From Candidatus Bathyarchaeota archaeon (GTDB lineage Archaea; Thermoproteota; Bathyarchaeia; Bathyarchaeales; Bathycorpusculaceae), in contig JAAYYI010000033.1 in the NCBI GenBank assembly GCA_012515445.1, forward strand, positions 10 through 64,009: DNA of 64,000 nucleotides, read 5' to 3'. This document shows, piece by piece, positions 3,360 through 50,705 of this stretch. Position numbers and translations under genes: made by a program. The notes below the pieces were generated by a model, which searched no databases, was not told the origin of the DNA, and was given only the letters and a program-made list of their open reading frames with translations. The number at the start of each line of letters is the position of its first letter. Within the stretch, counting starts at the first letter, position 1.

Positions 3360-3475
3360 ATGTTTTCCTTCATGTCAAGGCGACCCCTTGTCTTATAAGA
3401 ATTTGTTAACTCCACCCAATCGGGAAGATAATATTTAAGTTCATGCATAATCAGGCATCTTAAGGAGAGCTAACT

Positions 3476-4234
3476 ACGAACACAATCCAAGTATTACCCG
3501 TCACAGGCTTACCACTAATACATCCCGGCGACCAATTAGGCAAGATGATCGCGGAAGCAGCAGAAAAGCAGGGTACCCCAATACAGCCGCACGACGTCAT
3601 CGTAGCCACCCACGTCGCTGTCTCAAAATCTGAAGGCAACATAGTAAACCTCGACGCCGTCAAGCCGTCCGAGAGAGCTATCGAGATCGCTAAGCAAACA
3701 AACAAAGACCCCGCAATGGTGGAAGTTATCCTGCAGGACACCAAAGAAATCGTCCGCATAGGCCAAAACAGCATCATAACCGAAACCAAAAGCGGCGTCG
3801 TCTGCGCCAACTCTGGGGTAGACCGCTCAAACGTGGCGGGCGACCGAAACGTGGTACCTCTGCCAAAAGACCCTAACGCTTCAGCGGCTAGAATCCGGCG
3901 GGAAATAGTTGAGCAATCCGGCGTTGAGGATGTGGCTGTTATCGTGTCTGATACCCATGGGCGTCCGTTTAGGATGGGGGAAATCAACATAGCAGTCGGC
4001 TACGCTGGCTTCAAACCTATCAGGGACAGGCGTGGAGAGAAAGACCTGTTCGGATATGTGCTGCGCATAAAGATGACTGCGGTTGCAGACGAGTTAGCTT
4101 CAGCGGCTGAGCTTGTAATAGGTCAAGCAAATGAAGGAATCCCCGTGGCTATCGTGCGAGGCTACAACTATACATCAAGCGAAGAACAAACCACACAGCT
4201 TATCCGAGCTAAGGAAAAAGACCTGTTCAGGTAG
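3476..4234 (+). CDS. cofE: Coenzyme F420:L-glutamate ligase CofE (start proposed at ACG 3476; first ATG is 3545)
   Basis: Motifs GVVCANSGVDRSNV, PLPKDPNASA and DTHGRPFR are present. The conserved N-terminus IQVLPVTGLPLIHPGDQL is encoded upstream of the first ATG, in a stretch with no ATG/GTG/TTG. GGAG at 3464-3467 lies 8 nt before ACG 3476. Product confidence is high; the start is uncertain. Confidence 0.85.
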   Translation, partial: TNTIQVLPVTGLPLIHPGDQLGKMIAEAAEKQGTPIQPHDVIVATHVAVSKSEGNIVNLDAVKPSERAIEIAKQTNKDPAMVEVILQDTKEIVRIGQNSIITETKSGVVCANSGVDRSNVAGDRNVVPLPKDPNASAARIRREIVEQSGVEDVAVIVSDTHGRPFRMGEINIAVGYAGFKPIRDRRGEKDLFGYVLRIKMTAVADELASAAELVIGQANEGIPVAIVRGYNYTSSEEQTTQLIRAKEKDLFR

Positions 4235-4276: not shown

Positions 4277-4606
4277 ATGCAAGCACAAACACCCCAAGAA
4301 TTCTTTAGCACAATTTTACCTCAACGGTTCAAACCAGCGAAAGCAGCCGGCATAAACGTCGTCGCTCAAGTAAACATTTCTGGACCCGAAGGGGGCAGTT
4401 GGACAGTTACAATCAAAGATCAAAAGATGACTGTAACCGAAGGCGTGGACCCTAACGCTGAGTTAACGCTAAAAATGAACCCGGCCGATTTTCTGGATAT
4501 GGTAAACGAGAAGTTGAGTGCAGAGAAAGCCTTCTTTACCGGAAAAATCCAGTTTAAAGGCAATATCGCAGTCGCCCTGAAGCTTAAAGACGCTGGCTTT
4601 TTATAA
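4277..4606 (+). CDS. SCP2 (sterol carrier protein 2-like) domain protein
   Basis: 109-aa ORF. The C-terminal pattern ADFLDMVNEKLSAEKAFFTGKIQFKGNIAVALKL is typical of the SCP2 fold. Confidence 0.7.
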   Translation: MQAQTPQEFFSTILPQRFKPAKAAGINVVAQVNISGPEGGSWTVTIKDQKMTVTEGVDPNAELTLKMNPADFLDMVNEKLSAEKAFFTGKIQFKGNIAVALKLKDAGFL

Positions 4607-5146
4607 GTCCAGCTTATGGGCAACTTCCGGCGGCAGCGGCTCCTGACAGTACTTAAACGTGTCAGGCTCATCGATTTTACATATTGCTTTAAGCTCTTCA
4701 GCGCTTAGCTGCTTAATCAACTCAACGATTTTGTCATGTGCAACCAAGAACAACTGCTTCAAAGCTGGCTTGTCATGGAAGAGGACGCCGGCGTATTCGC
4801 ATATAACGGTTTTTTTAAGGTAAAATTCAACCATGCCTGTATGGAAGTTTATGTCGAAAGTGATTGGGCTGGCAACGCAGGTTTCGGGTTTAACAGAGTG
4901 CACCATGCAGCGTTTGGTTTTGCGGTCGTTAAAGACGCAGACGCCATCTTCATCTACTGAAGGGTAAGTGTAGCCGCCCTCAGTCGAGAAGGGATTGTCA
5001 ATGTTCAAGCCGTGTTCGTGCATGTATTGAGTTAAAATTTTTTTTCTCTCATCACTTAGCGGTGGCTTGGAACCGTGGCAGCAGGTATTCTTGCAGTTAC
5101 TGCAAACGTCATAGGAGTAGGTTTTTCCGTTGTTATCTTGGGACAT
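4601..5146 (-). CDS. YkgJ/UPF0153-like Cys-rich zinc/iron-chelating domain protein
   Basis: 181-aa ORF with CSNCKNTCCHG (CxxCxxCC) plus downstream conserved Cys residues (GVCVF, KRCMVH, ETC). Confidence 0.6.
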   Translation of the reverse strand: MSQDNNGKTYSYDVCSNCKNTCCHGSKPPLSDERKKILTQYMHEHGLNIDNPFSTEGGYTYPSVDEDGVCVFNDRKTKRCMVHSVKPETCVASPITFDINFHTGMVEFYLKKTVICEYAGVLFHDKPALKQLFLVAHDKIVELIKQLSAEELKAICKIDEPDTFKYCQEPLPPEVAHKLDL

Positions 5147-5752
5147 TTGGGTACCTTAGAACGGTTCATTGACATAGAGGCAATTAATAAGGGTTGAATA
5201 TACTTCGGTGATTGCTTCATGTATAACTCCTCAGTTGGACGCCTCTGGAAACGTTGACCTCCCAAATCTTTTTTTACGCTGTTCTGCGAGGTACAATCTG
5301 ACAAATATTGCCTGTGACGTAAATCTGTTCCCTGTTAAGCGACGCATCAGGTCACTTTTGTAGTGCTGAATTAAAAAGCGGCTTAGTTATAGATTGAGGA
5401 GCCCCCAAACATAGGGGACACGAAATTAAGCTTTATTGCGCTTTTAGGGCTATGAACAGCCGCCTTTACAATTGTTGCATCGCTAATTTTAAATATAACC
5501 TATCAAATACGCCTTCCTATTACTCTGGTGTCCTATGGGTGCTGGTTGTCTCAAGCATCGGCCAAACTGATGATTTCCATAAGCTGAGGTACTTAGCGAC
5601 TTCTAAATACTTTATAAAACGAAACTTGTCTGACCAAGTAATTTTTTTTCAGGGACATTTATTTTTTATCGCAAAAACCTTCACCCCTCTTAGCGCCGAT
5701 TCTCAATCTGCAATGATGAATAACCTACAGAACCCTAACTAAGGAATAACTC

Positions 5753-7934: not shown

Positions 7935-9371
7935 ACGAACCTTCTGTGCCTACAAAGCATAGAACTCTCCGAGCCCCAAATCCAAGGCAACGCCGTCCAC
8001 ACCGAAGTAACCCTCACCGACCTTTTGGCTAAAAAGAGCAGCTTTAGCCTGCAAGCCAAATACCCCCATGCACTTTCAGAGGCCGACTTACCGCTTCTGC
8101 GACTTGCCAGCGCCATGCCCATCCTTAACTACGGCTTATTCACCGACCAAATCCGATTGAACTACCCCATCAGCCACGCTGACCGTGCACTCCTAAATGA
8201 CCTTCTTGGGCTATTTAGCCGGGACATATTCATCAACAAGCTGGTGCGTCGGAAAAACCCCTATGTGCTCCCTGAGTACCTGCCAACCGAATCTGAGGTT
8301 ACGGAGGAAAACGCCAAGCCCCGAGCTAAAATCATCTCCAAATCGGTGTTTGCTGATGTTCCAATAATCAGCGGGTTAAATGCGAATTCCTGTGGGGTGC
8401 TCTCTAGCGGCGGCAAAGAAAGCCTCCTCACTTACGGCATGCTAAAAGAAGCAGGCGCCAACGTCTACCCCCTCTACGTCAACGAGAGCGGCGGACACTG
8501 GCGAACCGCATTGGCCGCCTACCGATACCATACTAAAACTGAGCCTAACACGGTACGGGTCTGGCTGAACGTAGATCGCTTCTACAACTTCATGCTTGAT
8601 CACCTCCAAATCATACGCCCCAACCACCGCAAAGTCTGGCTCGACACCTACCCCATCCGTCTCTGTATCTTCCCCGTCTACGTATTCTACCTCCTCCCCA
8701 TCTTCGCCGCCCAAAAAATCAGCAACCTTCTAATCGGCAGCGAATTCGACGACCCCCGGCTTGCACCCATCTACCGCGGCATTAAACACTACTTCGGCGT
8801 CTATGACCAAACCCAAGACTACGATTTACGCATGGAGCAATGGTATCAAAAACGCATGCCCACAATGAGGCAATGGAGCGCAGTGCGACCCATCTCAGGC
8901 TTGATTGTGGAACGTATCCTGACCCGCCGCTACCCCAAGCTAGCCAGTGTCCAGCGAAGCTGCCACAGCTGCCGTTTAGAGGGCGGCGAGGTAGTACCAT
9001 GCGGCGACTGCAGCAAATGCCTCGGAATCCAACTGTTCCTGCAGGCTAACGGCGCTGACCCCACAGCCTTGAACTACAGCAAACGGGATGTGGAGCTTTT
9101 CGCTCAGCGTTTCAATCAGGGCAGCTTGAGACTTGACGAGGATGAACGGGAGCATGCAGCCTACTTAGCCAGCCGACATGGCGTTACAGTCACCGGCAAA
9201 GAGAACCCGCATGTCGAGTCAATCCACCTCTACAAAGCCACCGCCGATCTGCAGCTTGTTCCAAAGCAGTTCCGCGCAAAACTTATGGGCATAATCGAGC
9301 AATACACCAACGGCTACACCAAACTCGAAGACGAAAAATGGGTCATCGCCGAGGCGTCTAAAGAGTTTTAA
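7935..9371 (+). CDS. PP-loop (N-type ATP pyrophosphatase) superfamily protein with C-terminal Cys cluster (start ACG 7935 proposed; TTG 8025 alternative)
   Basis: VLSSGGKESLLTYG is a SGGxDS-type PP-loop. The C-terminus has CHSCRLEGGEVVPCGDCSKC. The frame is open from the codon directly after the DUF1611 stop. Confidence 0.6.
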   Translation, partial: TNLLCLQSIELSEPQIQGNAVHTEVTLTDLLAKKSSFSLQAKYPHALSEADLPLLRLASAMPILNYGLFTDQIRLNYPISHADRALLNDLLGLFSRDIFINKLVRRKNPYVLPEYLPTESEVTEENAKPRAKIISKSVFADVPIISGLNANSCGVLSSGGKESLLTYGMLKEAGANVYPLYVNESGGHWRTALAAYRYHTKTEPNTVRVWLNVDRFYNFMLDHLQIIRPNHRKVWLDTYPIRLCIFPVYVFYLLPIFAAQKISNLLIGSEFDDPRLAPIYRGIKHYFGVYDQTQDYDLRMEQWYQKRMPTMRQWSAVRPISGLIVERILTRRYPKLASVQRSCHSCRLEGGEVVPCGDCSKCLGIQLFLQANGADPTALNYSKRDVELFAQRFNQGSLRLDEDEREHAAYLASRHGVTVTGKENPHVESIHLYKATADLQLVPKQFRAKLMGIIEQYTNGYTKLEDEKWVIAEASKEF

Positions 9372-23810: not shown

Positions 23811-25025
23811 ACGTCCAACGACAAGAAAAACAATGACGCGCTCAAGCTAAGTGACGATCTCTTAGCAGCGCTCGCAAAGTTCAAGACGATCGAGTTGGAA
23901 GACTTCCAACTTGACGCCAAAGAACTAGAAATACTCTTCGAGCCAGGACAAGCAGTAAACGTATTACCGAAACTCAAACTACCATTAGGCGTCGGCGCAG
24001 GCAAACCAACAAGCTTACTAGCACAGAACTTCCTGCCACCAGTCGAGAAATACCCAAACAAGATCGCCACAGTCAAACTAGGCGCAACACGAAGCGAAGG
24101 CGGCACACGCGGCAGAACAGTCACACTCGGCGGAGAAACCTCTCCAGCCTTCTACTCCTTTGAGAACCCAACACCACACAAACCAATCGTAACCTTAGAC
24201 GTCTTCGACATGGAAGTCCCACTGTCCAAGGCCGTCAAGATGCACGTTAAAGACGTCGTCGGCGACCCAGCAGCATGGGCGAAGCTTGCAGTCGAAAAGT
24301 TCGGCGCAGACATGGTTACAATGCACCTCATCAGCGTAGACCCACTACTCAAAGACGCATCACCGAAAGAAGCATGCAAAACAGTCGAGAAAGTCCTGCA
24401 GGCAGTCGATGTACCACTCGTAATCGGCGGATGCGGTGACCCAGTAAAAGACACAGCCCTCTTTGAAGAGGTATGCGCTCAGTTCCCAGGCGAACGCTTC
24501 CTAATCAGCTCAGTTACACGCGACATGGATGGCGAAAAATGCGCTAAATTCATCAAGAAAGCAGGCAACGCAGTACTTGCCTTCACACCAATGGACCTTA
24601 ACTTTGCACGCGAATTAAACAGGCGTCTCTTTGATCACCTATCACGCGAAGACATCGTTATGGACTTAACAACCGCAGCCCTCGGCTATGGACTTGACTA
24701 CGCATTCACCAACATGGAACGTGCACGCATCGGCGGCTTAATGGGCGACATGGAACTCGCTCAACCAATGAGCAGCGGCACAACCAACGCTTGGGCAGCC
24801 CGTGAAGCATGGCTAAAGATGTCAGCGGACTTTGAACCACGCGAACTCAGAGGTCCACTATGGGAAGTCACCACAGCGCTCACACTGCTTACTGCAGGTG
24901 TCGACGTATTCATGATGATGCACCCAGCAGCCGTTAAAACCCTCAAAGACGTCACTAACTACTTAACTGCAAACAAGAAAGCCGACCCAACCAAGTTCCT
25001 TGAGTGGGTTAAGGTGAAAGCTTAA
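23811..25025 (+). CDS. cdhD: ACDS delta subunit (corrinoid FeS protein small subunit); start proposed at ACG 23811, TTG 23895 alternative
   Basis: TIM-barrel CdhD/AcsD-like sequence (TLGGETSPAFYSFE, VTMHLIS, VPLVIGGCGD). The frame is open from 23805, with GGTGA at 23800-23804. Confidence 0.9.
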   Translation, partial: TSNDKKNNDALKLSDDLLAALAKFKTIELEDFQLDAKELEILFEPGQAVNVLPKLKLPLGVGAGKPTSLLAQNFLPPVEKYPNKIATVKLGATRSEGGTRGRTVTLGGETSPAFYSFENPTPHKPIVTLDVFDMEVPLSKAVKMHVKDVVGDPAAWAKLAVEKFGADMVTMHLISVDPLLKDASPKEACKTVEKVLQAVDVPLVIGGCGDPVKDTALFEEVCAQFPGERFLISSVTRDMDGEKCAKFIKKAGNAVLAFTPMDLNFARELNRRLFDHLSREDIVMDLTTAALGYGLDYAFTNMERARIGGLMGDMELAQPMSSGTTNAWAAREAWLKMSADFEPRELRGPLWEVTTALTLLTAGVDVFMMMHPAAVKTLKDVTNYLTANKKADPTKFLEWVKVKA

Positions 25026-37902: not shown

Positions 37903-39384
37903 TTACGGCTGAATCTCTTCGTTCTCGTAGATTCTGCCTTTCTCCTCATATCCTTGCTGGAAGCGCCGCTTCATTGCGTCAGCGATTTTCTGTGCACAGG
38001 GTGTCGGGTACTTGCCGGTTATGCAGGCCAAGCAGAGTTCATCCGTTTTTTTGCCTGTAGCCTCTACTAGAGCTTCGATTGACTGGTAGCAGACACCGTC
38101 GGCACCGATGATTTTTGCGATTTCCTCTGCGTTGTGGCGTGAACCGACGAGTTGGCCGTAGCTGGACATGTCGATGCCGTAGAAGCATGGGCCGATGATA
38201 CGTGGGAAAGTCACGAACACGTAAACTTTCTTCGCGCCTGCCTGACGCATCTTTTCGATGATTACTTTGGTTGTGTCTCCGCGGACGATACTGTCCTCGG
38301 TTATGATGACGCTTTTACCTGCGACTTTGGAGCCTAAAATGTTGATTTTTTTGTCGATGGTTGAGTAGCGTTCAGCGTTTAGCAGGATAAACGCGCGTTC
38401 AGTTACATAGCGGTGGCGCCTTGAGCAGCGTTCCCAGCGGAGTCCTGAAGCTTCATGCACGCCCATCGCGGAGTCGTCGCCTGTTTCGGGAACCGACATG
38501 ATTATGTCGCATTCCTTAACGACGTCTTGGTACTCTTTCACTGTGTTGCGCCCGAATTGCTCACGTATTTCATAGACGTATTTGCCGTTGAAAATAGAGT
38601 CGGGACGTGCAAAATATGCGAATTCAAACGCGCAGAAAGCGTGTTTGGGGTTTTCGATTACTTGGATTCGTTTAAAGCCGTCTTTGGTTGCGATAGCGAG
38701 TTCGCCGGGGTTTAACTCGAAATCCCGTACAAAGCTGTTCATGTCCAAGCTGACGGTTTCAGAGGAAAACGCTAAAGTTTTAGTGTTGGGGTCATGTCCG
38801 GCACACAGCGGTTTAATGCCGTGCGGGTCTTTGAAGGCAAAGAATTCTCCGTTTCCGGTTATGCCTGTGACGCTGAATGCTCCGTCGAGGCTTTCCATGA
38901 CTCCTTTTGCCGCGGCCACTATGTCTTTGCTCTGCTTGTAGCCAAGCAGGAACTTGTGACAAACGAGGTCTGAGTCGCAGTTGTAAATGAAATCCTTAAA
39001 GTTGTCTTCCATCTCTTTTTTGAGTGGCTGAGTGTTAACGATGTTGCCGTTGAATGATAGTGCTACGGTTACTCCGCCCATTGAGGCGGTAAAAGGCTGG
39101 GTTCCTTGAACGATGGATACGTCGTCGCATTTTCCTGATGTAGTGTAGCGGACGTTTCCGATGCCGACTGAGCCTGGGAGCCTAGCGAACCATTCGTTGA
39201 TTGCGTTGCCCTTGACTTTCGGTACTAGGTCCAGGTTCTTGTATGAGAAGAATTGTCCATTATGGAATGTGAGGAAGCCATGTGATTGGTGGCCTCGGTG
39301 ATTCTGAGCTCTTAGTCCCCAGTAAACATAGGGGAAAACTGGTTGATTTTCGAAGTTTATTGCTCCAAATATGCCGCAGCCCGT
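37903..39384 (-). CDS. purF: Amidophosphoribosyltransferase (start proposed at ACG, plus-strand 39382-39384; first ATG is 39081)
   Basis: Upstream of the first ATG the open frame encodes GCGIFGA (the Ntn Cys nucleophile), LRAQNHRGHQSHGF and GIGNVRYTTSG. The PRTase motif VIITEDSIVRGDT lies downstream. Confidence 0.9.
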   Translation of the reverse strand, partial: TGCGIFGAINFENQPVFPYVYWGLRAQNHRGHQSHGFLTFHNGQFFSYKNLDLVPKVKGNAINEWFARLPGSVGIGNVRYTTSGKCDDVSIVQGTQPFTASMGGVTVALSFNGNIVNTQPLKKEMEDNFKDFIYNCDSDLVCHKFLLGYKQSKDIVAAAKGVMESLDGAFSVTGITGNGEFFAFKDPHGIKPLCAGHDPNTKTLAFSSETVSLDMNSFVRDFELNPGELAIATKDGFKRIQVIENPKHAFCAFEFAYFARPDSIFNGKYVYEIREQFGRNTVKEYQDVVKECDIIMSVPETGDDSAMGVHEASGLRWERCSRRHRYVTERAFILLNAERYSTIDKKINILGSKVAGKSVIITEDSIVRGDTTKVIIEKMRQAGAKKVYVFVTFPRIIGPCFYGIDMSSYGQLVGSRHNAEEIAKIIGADGVCYQSIEALVEATGKKTDELCLACITGKYPTPCAQKIADAMKRRFQQGYEEKGRIYENEEIQP

Positions 39385-40538: not shown

Positions 40539-40614
40539 GCGGTTGTAGTCTAGCTCGGTAGGACTCCAGCTTCCCAAGCTGGCTACCCGGGTTCAAATCC
40601 CGGCAACCGCACCA
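40539..40614 (+). tRNA. tRNA-Gly (anticodon CCC), CCA encoded
   Basis: A cloverleaf was folded by hand. The acceptor stem is GCGGTTG/CAACCGC and the D stem GTCT/GGAC. The anticodon stem CCAGC/GCTGG carries loop TTCCCAA, and the T stem CCGGG/CCCGG carries loop TTCAAAT. Discriminator A is followed by CCA. Confidence 0.9.
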
Positions 40615-40763
40615 AATTATACATTAAATGCGTAGTTCTGCATTTTACTAACGCACACTTTTCAAGTGATGTCCAACCCGCAACTGATTCTTGCTCGTTA
40701 TGGATGCTTTTATATTTCGTGCTGGAGCTAATTCGGTTAATAGACATTCGGGAGAGACTATGG

Positions 40764-42080
40764 TTGAATAAAACAGCAAAAACACTTTCAATTCTTGTAA
40801 TCAGCGTCTTATGCCTGTCCATCTTCACCTCATCCGCAGCGGCGGGAACCACGGGGTTATGGATATACGGCGGAGACAAATACGACATGGCAATCGCCAA
40901 CATGGCCACCATGGATGGCAGCCACGTACTAGTAGGCTGCACACAATCCTACGGTTCATTAGCCGACGACCTATGGCTTTTCAAAGTAGCAGGCGACGGC
41001 TCTACAACATGGAGCAAGCACTACGGTGGTGAAGGCAACGAATCTGGCTTTAATGTTATCACAACAGTCGACGGTGGATATGCAGTAATCGGCGCCACAA
41101 CCTCATATGGTGCAGGCGAAGAAGACATCTGGCTGGTTAAAACAGACTCGGAGGGCAATATGCAGTGGAACCAAACCTACGGCGGCTTATACGACGACGA
41201 AGGCTGGATGCTAATCCAAACCAGCGACGGCGGCTACCTCATCACAGGCTTAATCTGCACTTCTGAAGGCATAGGGGACGGTTGCCTAATAAAAACAGAC
41301 TCATCCGGCAATCTGGAATGGCAGAAAACCTACGGTGGAGCAGGCGACGAAGGCTTTTACGGCATAACCAAATCCTCCGAAGGCGGCTACATCCTAGCTG
41401 GATACACAAATTCAACTGGCGCTGGCAAGTGCGACGTTTGGCTAGTAAAGGTAAGTGCCTCAGGTACCGAGCAGTGGGCTAAAACCTACGGCGGCTCAGA
41501 AGACGATTACGGGTATATCGCTTTTGAAACCGAAACAGACTTCGTCGTTGACTGCACAACCTACTCTTACGGCGCAGGCGAAGCAGATGTTTGGCTGCTT
41601 AAAGTCGACGCTATGGGCGGTTTAATGTGGAACTACACCTATGGTGGACCAGAAGACGACCATGGCTGGTACGGCGCAAAAACCACCGACGGCTTCGCAC
41701 TTGGCGGCTACACCTACTCTTATGGGGTAAACGGTAACGCTGCTGCTTGGCTCATAAAAGTAGACATAAACGGCATGACTATGTGGAACCAAACCTATGG
41801 GTCAGCAGCCAAAGACTTCTACGGTTGGGCGGTAACGCAGACAAGCGACGGTGGCTATGCAATTTCCGGCGAAGTATTACCAGTAGATGTCGATACATGC
41901 GACGCTTTCCTAGTCATCACCGACGAGAACGGCGATGCATTGATTCCTGAAGACACCGCCAATACCGAGCTTATCCCACTATGGGCTGTCGGCGCGATCG
42001 TTGCGGTTATAATCGTTGTTTTGCTGGTTGTTGTTCTGCTTATGCGGCGAAAACCCAAGCAGCCGCAACCAACACAATAA
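40764..42080 (+). CDS. Secreted 7-repeat (beta-propeller-like) surface protein with C-terminal TM anchor
   Basis: A TTG 40764 start gives the signal peptide MNKTAKTLSILVISVLCLSIFTSSAAA. There are seven repeats of about 50 aa (W.KTYGG..D.G....T.DGGY...G.T.S.G.G..D.WL.K.D..G...W). The C-terminus is a TM helix plus RRKPKQ. Confidence 0.6.
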   Translation: MNKTAKTLSILVISVLCLSIFTSSAAAGTTGLWIYGGDKYDMAIANMATMDGSHVLVGCTQSYGSLADDLWLFKVAGDGSTTWSKHYGGEGNESGFNVITTVDGGYAVIGATTSYGAGEEDIWLVKTDSEGNMQWNQTYGGLYDDEGWMLIQTSDGGYLITGLICTSEGIGDGCLIKTDSSGNLEWQKTYGGAGDEGFYGITKSSEGGYILAGYTNSTGAGKCDVWLVKVSASGTEQWAKTYGGSEDDYGYIAFETETDFVVDCTTYSYGAGEADVWLLKVDAMGGLMWNYTYGGPEDDHGWYGAKTTDGFALGGYTYSYGVNGNAAAWLIKVDINGMTMWNQTYGSAAKDFYGWAVTQTSDGGYAISGEVLPVDVDTCDAFLVITDENGDALIPEDTANTELIPLWAVGAIVAVIIVVLLVVVLLMRRKPKQPQPTQ

Positions 42081-49479: not shown

Positions 49480-50634
49480 CTACACTGCAGGCGCTATATC
49501 TGGCGCCGCGCTTGACATAGACTGCCATCGGCGCCGATTTACCTTCACAAACAAAGTAACTATAAGCGCAACCAACACAGCTCCTGCAACTACAAACGCA
49601 ATAACATAAAGGGGCAGAATCCACACTGTCGCTAGATTACTTACTGAACCATTCAATTCCTCGTTGCCTAACCAGCTTGCCTGCACATCCATCGATCCTG
49701 ACGTCTGAATCATCCAGTCAAAACTGAAACGCCCATCAGTGCCGGTTTGGGCTGAGCCAATTGTGAACCATTCTCCTGCGTTGCTTCGGGCTCGTAGGGT
49801 AATGTTCTCGCCTGTCTGATGCGGAAGTATCTGCCCAGTTATGGTTACATTACCGTTCTGCAGGATAAAGGGCGAAGACATAGCTAACGTTAGAGTGCTT
49901 GGGTCCAGTTCGTGCAATGAAGCGCCCACTTGACCAGGTGCCGTATTCTGCATATAAGTTGGCCCCACAACCTGCACAGAGATGTTTTGGTAACTGCTTG
50001 GGCACTCGCCGACTCGCCAGCCATTTCGCCAGGAGCCGCCTGTGCATTCTGCTATGTAGTAAGTGGCGTTCTGGTAGGTGACGCTGTAAACGCCGTTTCT
50101 TGCATCCGTAGGTTGATAGCCGACGTCCACTGCGAGTTGCATGTGCCGCTGTTGCTGATAATATAAGAGCACCACTGGGACGCCGCCAGCCTCCAAAATC
50201 GAACCTGCTATAAACGCGAATAAGTCGCAGTCGCCAACTCCCTCAAACAGTGTTTCAGCGGGGTACTTGACTGCCTCTGATTCTTCATAGGTTATCTGGT
50301 GGACGATTTGAAGTACGCCGTTTGTGAAGTCCTCGGTGTTGTTATAAATCTGCCAGAGTTTGTCAGCGACAGGCTTCATTGTGTAGGGTGTGATGAACTG
50401 TGAAAGATGCTGTGCGGTGAAGACAAAGTGGTTCTGCTGCATGTAGTACTGGTAGAGACTGTAGGGCACTATTAAGTTGAGTTGGTAGGATGTTGAGCTG
50501 CCGGGATATTCTGATACCAGAAAAGATAGTTCAGTATCCTGTGTTTCGCTCTCGGTTCTGCCAACAGGAACTAACGATAAGACGATTACCAATAGTGCAG
50601 ATAGGCAGAGCGCTTTTAGGTACACAGCTTTCAT
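49480..50634 (-). CDS. Membrane-anchored extracellular protein with transglutaminase-like Cys-protease core
   Basis: 384-aa ORF with a signal peptide. GVGDCDLFAFIAGSILEAGGVPV fits the G.C..FA.....L.A.G.P signature. A later beta-rich domain is followed by a C-terminal TM helix plus RRR. Confidence 0.5.
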   Translation of the reverse strand: MKAVYLKALCLSALLVIVLSLVPVGRTESETQDTELSFLVSEYPGSSTSYQLNLIVPYSLYQYYMQQNHFVFTAQHLSQFITPYTMKPVADKLWQIYNNTEDFTNGVLQIVHQITYEESEAVKYPAETLFEGVGDCDLFAFIAGSILEAGGVPVVLLYYQQQRHMQLAVDVGYQPTDARNGVYSVTYQNATYYIAECTGGSWRNGWRVGECPSSYQNISVQVVGPTYMQNTAPGQVGASLHELDPSTLTLAMSSPFILQNGNVTITGQILPHQTGENITLRARSNAGEWFTIGSAQTGTDGRFSFDWMIQTSGSMDVQASWLGNEELNGSVSNLATVWILPLYVIAFVVAGAVLVALIVTLFVKVNRRRWQSMSSAAPDIAPAV

Positions 50635-50705
50635 ATTGGAGAATACCCGCCGAATGTTTCCTCCAATTGATTTGATTCCTTAAATGGTTATTCCCAAAAC
50701 TGCAT

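Follow-up and report, generated by a model that had tools for sequence, protein, structure and literature searches.

A conserved ACG triplet as the probable initiation codon of cofE in a clade of Bathyarchaeia

The 64,000-nucleotide stretch of Candidatus Bathyarchaeota DNA analyzed here (hereafter, the window) carries on its forward strand cofE, the gene for coenzyme F420-0:L-glutamate ligase, in which the conserved N-terminus of the enzyme is encoded upstream of the first canonical start codon. The cofE frame is shut upstream by an in-frame TAA (3461–3463) and reaches its first canonical in-frame ATG only at 3545–3547; direct reading finds no ATG, GTG or TTG between the two. After the TAA, the frame translates as G E L T T N T I Q V L P V T G L P L I H P G D Q L G K M. 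An ACG at 3476–3478, the likely initiation codon, would open a coding sequence of 252 codons plus a TAG stop (4232–4234), spanning 3476–4234, whose Met-started N-terminal peptide would be MNTIQVLPVTGLPLIHPGDQLGK. Codons 2–23 of this product (3479–3544; NTIQVLPVTGLPLIHPGDQLGK) comprise the N-terminal strand, the GLPLI..GD loop and the beginning of helix 1, and are lost if ATG 3545 is taken as the start, as in gene-caller output (229-residue product); counted from the ACG, this ATG encodes the internal Met24. The positions of the TAA, the ACG and the ATG, together with a GGAG at 3464–3467 and an ATC at 3485, had been given in the initial annotation of the locus, and direct reading finds each of them, as well as the 252-residue length, correct. 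A run of 27 codons without a canonical start has a chance probability of ~0.25 and hence is not unusual alone; the stretch is significant because homology shows that a conserved protein is encoded there. The upstream neighbor of cofE sits on the opposite strand, so cofE heads its transcription unit and has no translational coupling to an upstream gene.

Profile and structural comparisons identify the predicted enzyme as CofE (F420-0:gamma-glutamyl ligase). The NCBIfam equivalog TIGR01916 scores 287.4 bits against a cutoff of 180.65, with profile positions 1–244 of 244 covered, and NF009809 scores 285 bits against a cutoff of 274. Position 1 of TIGR01916 falls on the Ile encoded at 3485, and the stretch preceding the ATG matches profile positions 1–17; the Pfam PF01996 match (243.5 bits) begins at residue 16 of the stop-to-stop translation. 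Archaeoglobus fulgidus CofE chains 7ULD, 2PHN and 2G9I match from query residue 4 (E ~9e-49), with residues 4–252 of the ACG-started protein aligned to residues 3–242 of the 2G9I chain. This alignment puts chain residue 3 at VEVFPVEGLPLIKEGDDL, consistent with the Archaeoglobus start, MRVEVFPVEGLPLIKEGDDL, given in the initial annotation. In an AlphaFold model (mean predicted local distance difference test, pLDDT, 74.5), a strand spans residues 5–8 and a helix spans residues 21–31, with Met24 inside that helix; block means of pLDDT are 72 for residues 1–10, 85 for residues 11–20 and 94 for residues 21–30. Relative to the A. fulgidus enzyme and the TIGR01916 and PF01996 families, the match is full-length, including the V.P..GLPLI..GD segment, and only the start codon differs. 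The proposal that the CofE N-terminus lies upstream of the first ATG is thereby upheld by both profiles, which cover the stretch upstream of ATG 3545 as the suggested family alignment was meant to reveal, and by the PDB alignment, the AlphaFold model and the substitution pattern described below.

To place the start column across Bathyarchaeia, 80 cofE loci from species-representative genomes and 80 from metagenomes were anchored by tblastn, and DNA was fetched for particular protein matches at six further loci (L168–L173). The proteins nearest to the window CofE all come from Bathyarchaeia and are mostly 252 residues long, beginning MN.VQVI.VEGLPLI, so that their Met aligns exactly with the window ACG. 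Across 154 distinct CofE sequences, the column of ACG 3476 is occupied by GTG in 79, ATG in 47, TTG in 14, ACG in 13 and ATT in one, and no other codon occurs. The column thus holds a canonical start in 140/154 sequences, or in 141/154 if the single ATT, which is directly preceded by an ATG, is counted. L168–L173 also carry ACG at this position; the starts called there are either a close-by ATG or GTG overlapping the SD or, three codons further on, a Val codon. In-frame stops lie 2–14 codons upstream of the ACG in L001, L002, L035, L081, L082 and L171. The 123-nt start region that includes the ACG is identical in three independent assemblies from different sequencing runs; the window ACG is therefore not an assembly error, and the initial concern that a sequencing error might hide an ATG is not borne out.

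The ACG is preceded by signals typical of an initiation site. A Shine-Dalgarno (SD) core, GGAG at 3464–3467 (extended form AAGGAGAG, 3462–3469), stands 8 nt before ACG 3476, with the spacer AGCTAACT. A GGAG, GAGG or GGTG motif occurs in 13/13 ACG loci with a spacer of 6–10 nt (mode 8–9) and in 106/136 canonical loci with a modal spacer of 8 nt; the two groups share the same distribution. Further upstream lies a putative archaeal promoter at 3427–3440 on the forward strand, a B recognition element (BRE)/TATA-like sequence (GATAATATTTAAGT) whose TTTAAGT begins 42 nt upstream of the ACG. In 12/13 ACG-group loci, TTTAAGT occurs at −42 to −46, mostly at −42/−43, when up to one mismatch is allowed, and the conserved BRE/TATA element, about 42–43 nt 5' of the ACG, resembles GATAAAATTTAAGT. 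Many canonical cofE loci have a similar TATA box at about −46/−47. On this spacing, transcription would begin ~13–14 nt 5' of the ACG, and the SD would fall within a short leader.

The ACG is conserved in a manner that coding constraint on the protein does not explain. All 12 ACG-clade sequences nearest the window (74–95% amino-acid identity) carry ACG, and among the 57 fourfold-degenerate columns with an invariant amino acid in these 12 clade members, the ACG is the only one with an invariant codon. At other Thr columns of the clade, ACC, ACA and ACT interchange freely; of the Thr codons, ACG is the least used (15/160). Synonymous sites are near saturation in the clade (mean dS 1.4–1.9). For codons 2–23, the ratio of nonsynonymous to synonymous substitution rates (dN/dS) estimated by NG86 is ~0.14 at a mean dS of 1.4, as compared to ~0.07 for the remainder of cofE, and the frame is intact at 251–252 codons in every clade member. 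This coding-type substitution indicates that the upstream stretch is translated in the cofE frame and that the gene is strongly constrained. We conclude from these comparisons that the ACG triplet itself is under selection beyond amino-acid conservation. On a neighbor-joining tree, the 12 ACG sequences, including that of the window, form one clean clade, and Fitch parsimony yields a canonical root with two changes to ACG. The second independent origin is L125, from a subgroup whose other members have ATG. At that locus (position 1772 of contig Ga0316601_100029647), a stop lies 17 codons upstream of the ACG and no canonical start occurs before codon +42.

That ACG 3476 serves as the cofE start, as the initial annotation proposed, is very likely given the canonical codons aligned to it in orthologues, the SD spacing of 8–9 nt in both groups of loci and the invariance of the triplet within the clade. 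We propose that a T-to-C change in a canonical start of the sub-clade ancestor produced the ACG, which was then kept by selection. Transcription from the gene's own promoter would yield a leader of ~13 nt starting at or near the SD (AAGGAGAG), and pairing of the SD with the anti-SD would set the triplet 8 nt downstream, the ACG, in the P site of the small subunit. The ordinary initiator Met-tRNA (anticodon CAU) would read this near-cognate triplet despite one mismatch, C:A, at its middle position, and the protein would begin with Met as the 252-residue CofE, probably less efficiently than from AUG. Archaeal initiation is suited to such a scheme in that the SD brings the initiation complex into place in advance, and the initiator tRNA then tests nearby triplets with aIF1 in control (PMC6237735). 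Ribosome profiling of Haloferax classed ~30% of putative alternative initiation sites as near-cognate, a result not pursued there (PMC7261190). The start of transcription, decoding by the initiator Met-tRNA, the Met N-terminus and a tuning of expression are parts of the proposal that we infer from these features. We assign the proposal as a whole, including decoding of ACG 3476 by the initiator tRNA, a probability of about 0.78.

Beyond cofE, all fetched loci and the window were scanned for the first SD-spaced codon within 12 codons after an upstream stop, in open reading frames (ORFs) of at least 120 codons. This SD-anchored scan returned ATG 111 times, GTG 62, TTG 34 and ACG 23 times, with no more than 7 for any other codon; ATA, ATT, ATC and CTG were not above background in these loci, ATA being a feature of purF specifically (see below). 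Most of the additional ACG matches belong to one gene, a GCS2/YbdK-like carboxylate-amine ligase of ~395 residues (PF04107) that most loci carry ~2 kb from cofE. At its start column, 72/75 distinct loci have ACG and the other 3 have ATG; under a stricter filter, 70/72 have ACG. A GAGG stands 6–9 nt upstream of the ACG, in-frame stops often lie 1–3 codons upstream, and in 57/70 ACG loci the upstream frame is closed without any canonical start. Read from the ACG, the protein would begin (M)YKPLEVLGPEHEY..., and in L168 the gene is called at 371 residues instead of ~395. A representative copy lies at 4702–5889 of L023 on the reverse strand, with equivalents in ~75 other loci (for example, L007, L046 and L160).

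In the window itself, the GCS2-like gene is represented only by a 22-residue relic of its C-terminus (5159–5224, reverse strand; residues 373–394, 59% identity), with nothing else of the gene present. The relic sits just upstream of a CxxCxxCC-family gene (4601–5146), the position at which relatives carry the full GCS2-like gene, which suggests that a deletion or rearrangement near 5225–5400 removed it.

Two further conserved genes of the window show the same arrangement as cofE. The purF gene (37906–39384, reverse strand) would begin with ACG 39384, which is followed by Gly-Cys codons (ACG-GGC-TGC), the Cys being position 1 of TIGR01134; its first canonical start, ATG 39081, lies ~100 codons downstream. 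From the catalytic Cys, the mature N-terminus would read CGIFGAINFENQ... Among 120 ortholog clusters of PurF, 21 begin MGCGIFG at 493 residues, the length obtained from the ACG start, and in another 44, called too short, the catalytic Cys is absent. The start column of these clusters holds Ile in ~50 and Thr in 3. At the DNA level, orthologues have ATG, ACG or ATA there; ACG is seen in three lineages and ATA, independently, in four. The second gene, cdhD (23811–25025, forward strand), encodes the delta subunit of carbon monoxide dehydrogenase/acetyl-CoA synthase and has GGTGA-N6-ACG at its putative start, the ACG being at 23811. Position 4 of TIGR00381 aligns to residue 17 counted from this ACG, and a conserved LKLSDDLLAALAKFKTIE segment precedes the first canonical start, TTG 23895, which corresponds to residue 29. 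CdhD orthologues are mostly 405–413 residues long; the closest relatives are truncated calls of 376–378 residues, and CdhD is called at 376 residues instead of ~404.

Among window ORFs of at least 200 codons, only cofE, purF, cdhD and one further candidate have at least 20 conserved-looking codons before a canonical start. The candidate is an ORF of 478 codons (7935–9371, forward strand) with an SGGKES PP-loop-like motif and no match in Pfam or NCBIfam. Its ACG directly follows the TAA of the upstream gene, with a GGTGA 7 nt upstream, and its first canonical start is 30 codons in. This start is ambiguous, as the ACG is retained in the near-identical orthologous loci L084, L085 and L088 together with an ATG four codons 5' of it. 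Taken together, the comparisons establish predicted ACG starts that recur in other genes and lineages of Bathyarchaeia. In the ORF at 49480–50679 (reverse strand), a possible further non-canonical start is ATT 50655, which follows a strong GGAGG with a 4-nt spacer and lies seven codons upstream of the canonical ATG 50634. The stop-to-stop frame at 40554–42080 owes its long pre-start stretch to a tRNA-Gly(CCC) gene (40539–40614, forward strand) that overlaps its 5' end.

The status of the ACG differs by gene: in the GCS2-like gene it has come close to fixation, in cofE it is fixed within the clade, and in purF the column varies among ACG, ATG and ATA. A lineage-specific cognate decoder, whether a second initiator-like tRNA with a CGU anticodon, a modified initiator anticodon or an elongator Thr-tRNA that would leave a Thr N-terminus, is an improbable alternative to the ordinary initiator. 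In its favor is the very long retention of the ACG in ~70/72 GCS2-like loci, which suggests fairly efficient use, but the same columns switch freely among ATG, GTG, TTG, ACG and ATA in related species, a pattern that a single permissive initiator fits better than a tRNA specific for ACG. The window and the 60 loci scanned contain no tRNA gene for Met or Thr; the only tRNA genes seen were tRNA-Gly(CCC) in the window and tRNA-Leu(GAG) in the scanned loci.

Initiation at the ATC (3485–3487) instead of the ACG would yield a 249-residue protein beginning MQVLPV. ATC is a near-cognate codon of translation table 11 that differs from ATG at the third base only, the residue it encodes aligns to position 1 of TIGR01916, and the equivalent codon is GTG in L171–173, where it is called as the start. 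The ATC, however, lies 17 nt from the SD, as compared to a spacer of 6–11 nt in all loci with an SD motif, and its column is GTA or GTT in L002, L003, L020 and L081; with two mismatches to AUG, these codons indicate that it is not a conserved start. Three codons before it, by contrast, all 12 clade members have the same ACG. We regard this start as quite improbable, in keeping with the initial annotation, which had ranked the ATC as the weaker choice on the basis of its distance from the SD.

Translation from ATG 3545 is very unlikely, even though it is the only canonical in-frame start and the 229-residue product is the database entry for several relatives and, on 10 contigs, for the exact window cofE sequence. 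It would produce a CofE without the N-terminal strand and would require the upstream conservation to be non-coding, for instance that of a leader or regulatory element. No SD-like motif precedes this ATG (upstream letters cgaccaattaggcaag), and codons 2–23 bear many synonymous changes in a coding substitution pattern (dN/dS 0.14). The same stretch fits TIGR01916 positions 1–17 and the N-terminus of the solved CofE, Met24 would initiate within predicted helix 1, and 141/154 distinct orthologues have a canonical start at or beside the ACG column. Orthologues that start at the equivalent of ATG 3545, raised initially as a possibility, were not found: the entries of 228–229 residues are truncated calls from the ACG clade.

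A different route to a canonical start would be site-specific C-to-U editing that turns the genomic ACG into AUG in the mRNA. Plant organelles create AUG from ACG by such editing in several genes, ndhD and psbL among them, and a strictly conserved genomic ACG where relatives have ATG, as in cofE, is the signature of such chloroplast and mitochondrial sites; editing would also explain the strict conservation of the triplet. Archaea, unlike plant organelles, are not known to have either mRNA C-to-U editing or the machinery for it. The ATA found at the purF start column in four independent lineages cannot be repaired by a C-to-U change, and with at least two independent origins in cofE and further cases in other genes, every site would need a pre-existing specificity factor. 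Editing is therefore highly improbable in our assessment. Finally, a sequencing or assembly error, or a decaying cofE pseudogene without a start, for which one T-to-C change from ATG would suffice, can be practically dismissed given three identical independent assemblies, 12 diverged species with ACG, a whole-gene dN/dS of ~0.07 and a frame intact in all clade members.

Starts upstream of the ACG were likewise considered and rejected. Readthrough of TAA 3461 from an in-frame ATG at 3443 (MHNQAS*GELTT...) would use an ATG that is not conserved (AGC in L001) and that is situated downstream of the TATA box but ahead of the predicted transcription start. Far-upstream canonical starts, as in the 272–284-residue entries P0006 and P0007, produce extensions that cross the SD and, in L003 and L020, the conserved TATA box as well. 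Public N-termini in the cofE clade disagree, with truncations of 228–229 residues beside extensions of 262–284 residues (P0006, P0007, P0009, P0012 and others). These implausible extensions run the SD into the protein as 'GE' and, in L003, include the promoter. To judge by the L002 sequence, ATT is the apparent start of NCBI entry P0010 (245 residues, MPVTGLP...). ACG is, to our knowledge, not among the start codons of translation table 11; gene calls are truncated because gene callers do not consider it, and standard gene callers truncate or over-extend ACG-start genes in Bathyarchaeia.

Several observations weigh against initiation at the ACG as proposed. In L168 and L170, an ATG and a GTG, respectively, sit five codons upstream of the ACG and overlap the SD, and in L171–173 a GTG lies three codons downstream; in these loci the ACG need not be the sole start. 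The support for initiation at ACG is all comparative, the transcription start of cofE is inferred from promoter spacing, and the gene families that show the pattern are few (cofE, the GCS2-like gene, purF and cdhD). A 2020 review gives the archaeal start codons as AUG, GUG and UUG (PMC7531240), and aIF1 destabilizes complexes on non-AUG mRNA (PMC6237735, PMC7531240), so that ACG would be expected to be inefficient unless the Bathyarchaeia lineage is more permissive.

ACG initiation is established in eukaryotes and their viruses, where it is used for AAV VP2, the Sendai virus C' protein, the mitochondrial isoform of yeast ALA1 and many upstream ORFs. As in those cases, the cofE ACG occupies a defined site; there, the initiator Met-tRNA decodes the codon through a middle-position mismatch, and output is usually lowered or regulated. 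The codon-checking core of e/aIF1, e/aIF1A and e/aIF2 is common to archaea and eukaryotes (PMC6237735, PMC7531240). In contrast to the eukaryotic examples, the cofE site would be chosen through an SD in a short leader, where eukaryotes rely on cap-dependent scanning and Kozak context, the ACG would be the sole start of a housekeeping enzyme and not that of an alternative isoform or upstream ORF, and its conservation is clade-wide in cofE and class-wide in the GCS2-like gene. Among bacterial-type starts, table 11 lists AUU, AUC, AUA and CUG as rare start codons, of which the conserved AUU of infC serves autoregulation of IF3, and measured initiation at ACG in E. coli is very low. The cofE ACG resembles the infC AUU in that it follows a normal SD, is selectively kept and could plausibly serve to hold down or regulate expression. 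ATA starts at purF belong to this rare-start class, whereas the mismatch of the cofE ACG falls at the second codon position. A literature search of incomplete coverage found no report of an ACG start in archaea or bacteria or of unusual start codons in Bathyarchaeia, which leaves a prior description possible; the ACG-start literature it retrieved was eukaryotic, viral or organellar only. What appears to be new is SD-directed near-cognate initiation in an archaeal group, with the ACG preserved as the only start of core enzymes.

Taken more broadly, it seems somewhat probable that Bathyarchaeia have a class-wide relaxed start-codon repertoire in which ACG and AUA are genuine starts, selectively maintained for specific genes, with ~4 of the roughly 65 genes of the window mis-started. 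Class-wide use of such starts in particular genes would most plausibly set or regulate low expression; the long retention of the ACG, close to fixation in the GCS2-like gene, suggests that it is useful in this way. Such a repertoire would imply a lineage-specific stringency of the aIF1/aIF2/initiator-tRNA checkpoint, possibly exploited for regulation in the manner of the infC AUU. Archaeal start selection would then be more eukaryote-like and permissive than the AUG/GUG/UUG rule of reviews allows, which is of relevance as Bathyarchaeia lie within the TACK lineage, related to the eukaryotic stem. If this is correct, a noticeable share of public Bathyarchaeia genes would be mis-started, and the resulting annotation errors would distort metabolic reconstructions, structure predictions and heterologous expression constructs. 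The signature seen here, namely a canonical start at the column in relatives, a normally spaced SD and an invariant triplet amid saturated synonymous sites, can be applied genome-wide. Conserved weak starts would then point to translational control of a kind still unexplored in these archaea, which are abundant, for the most part uncultured and of importance for carbon cycling.

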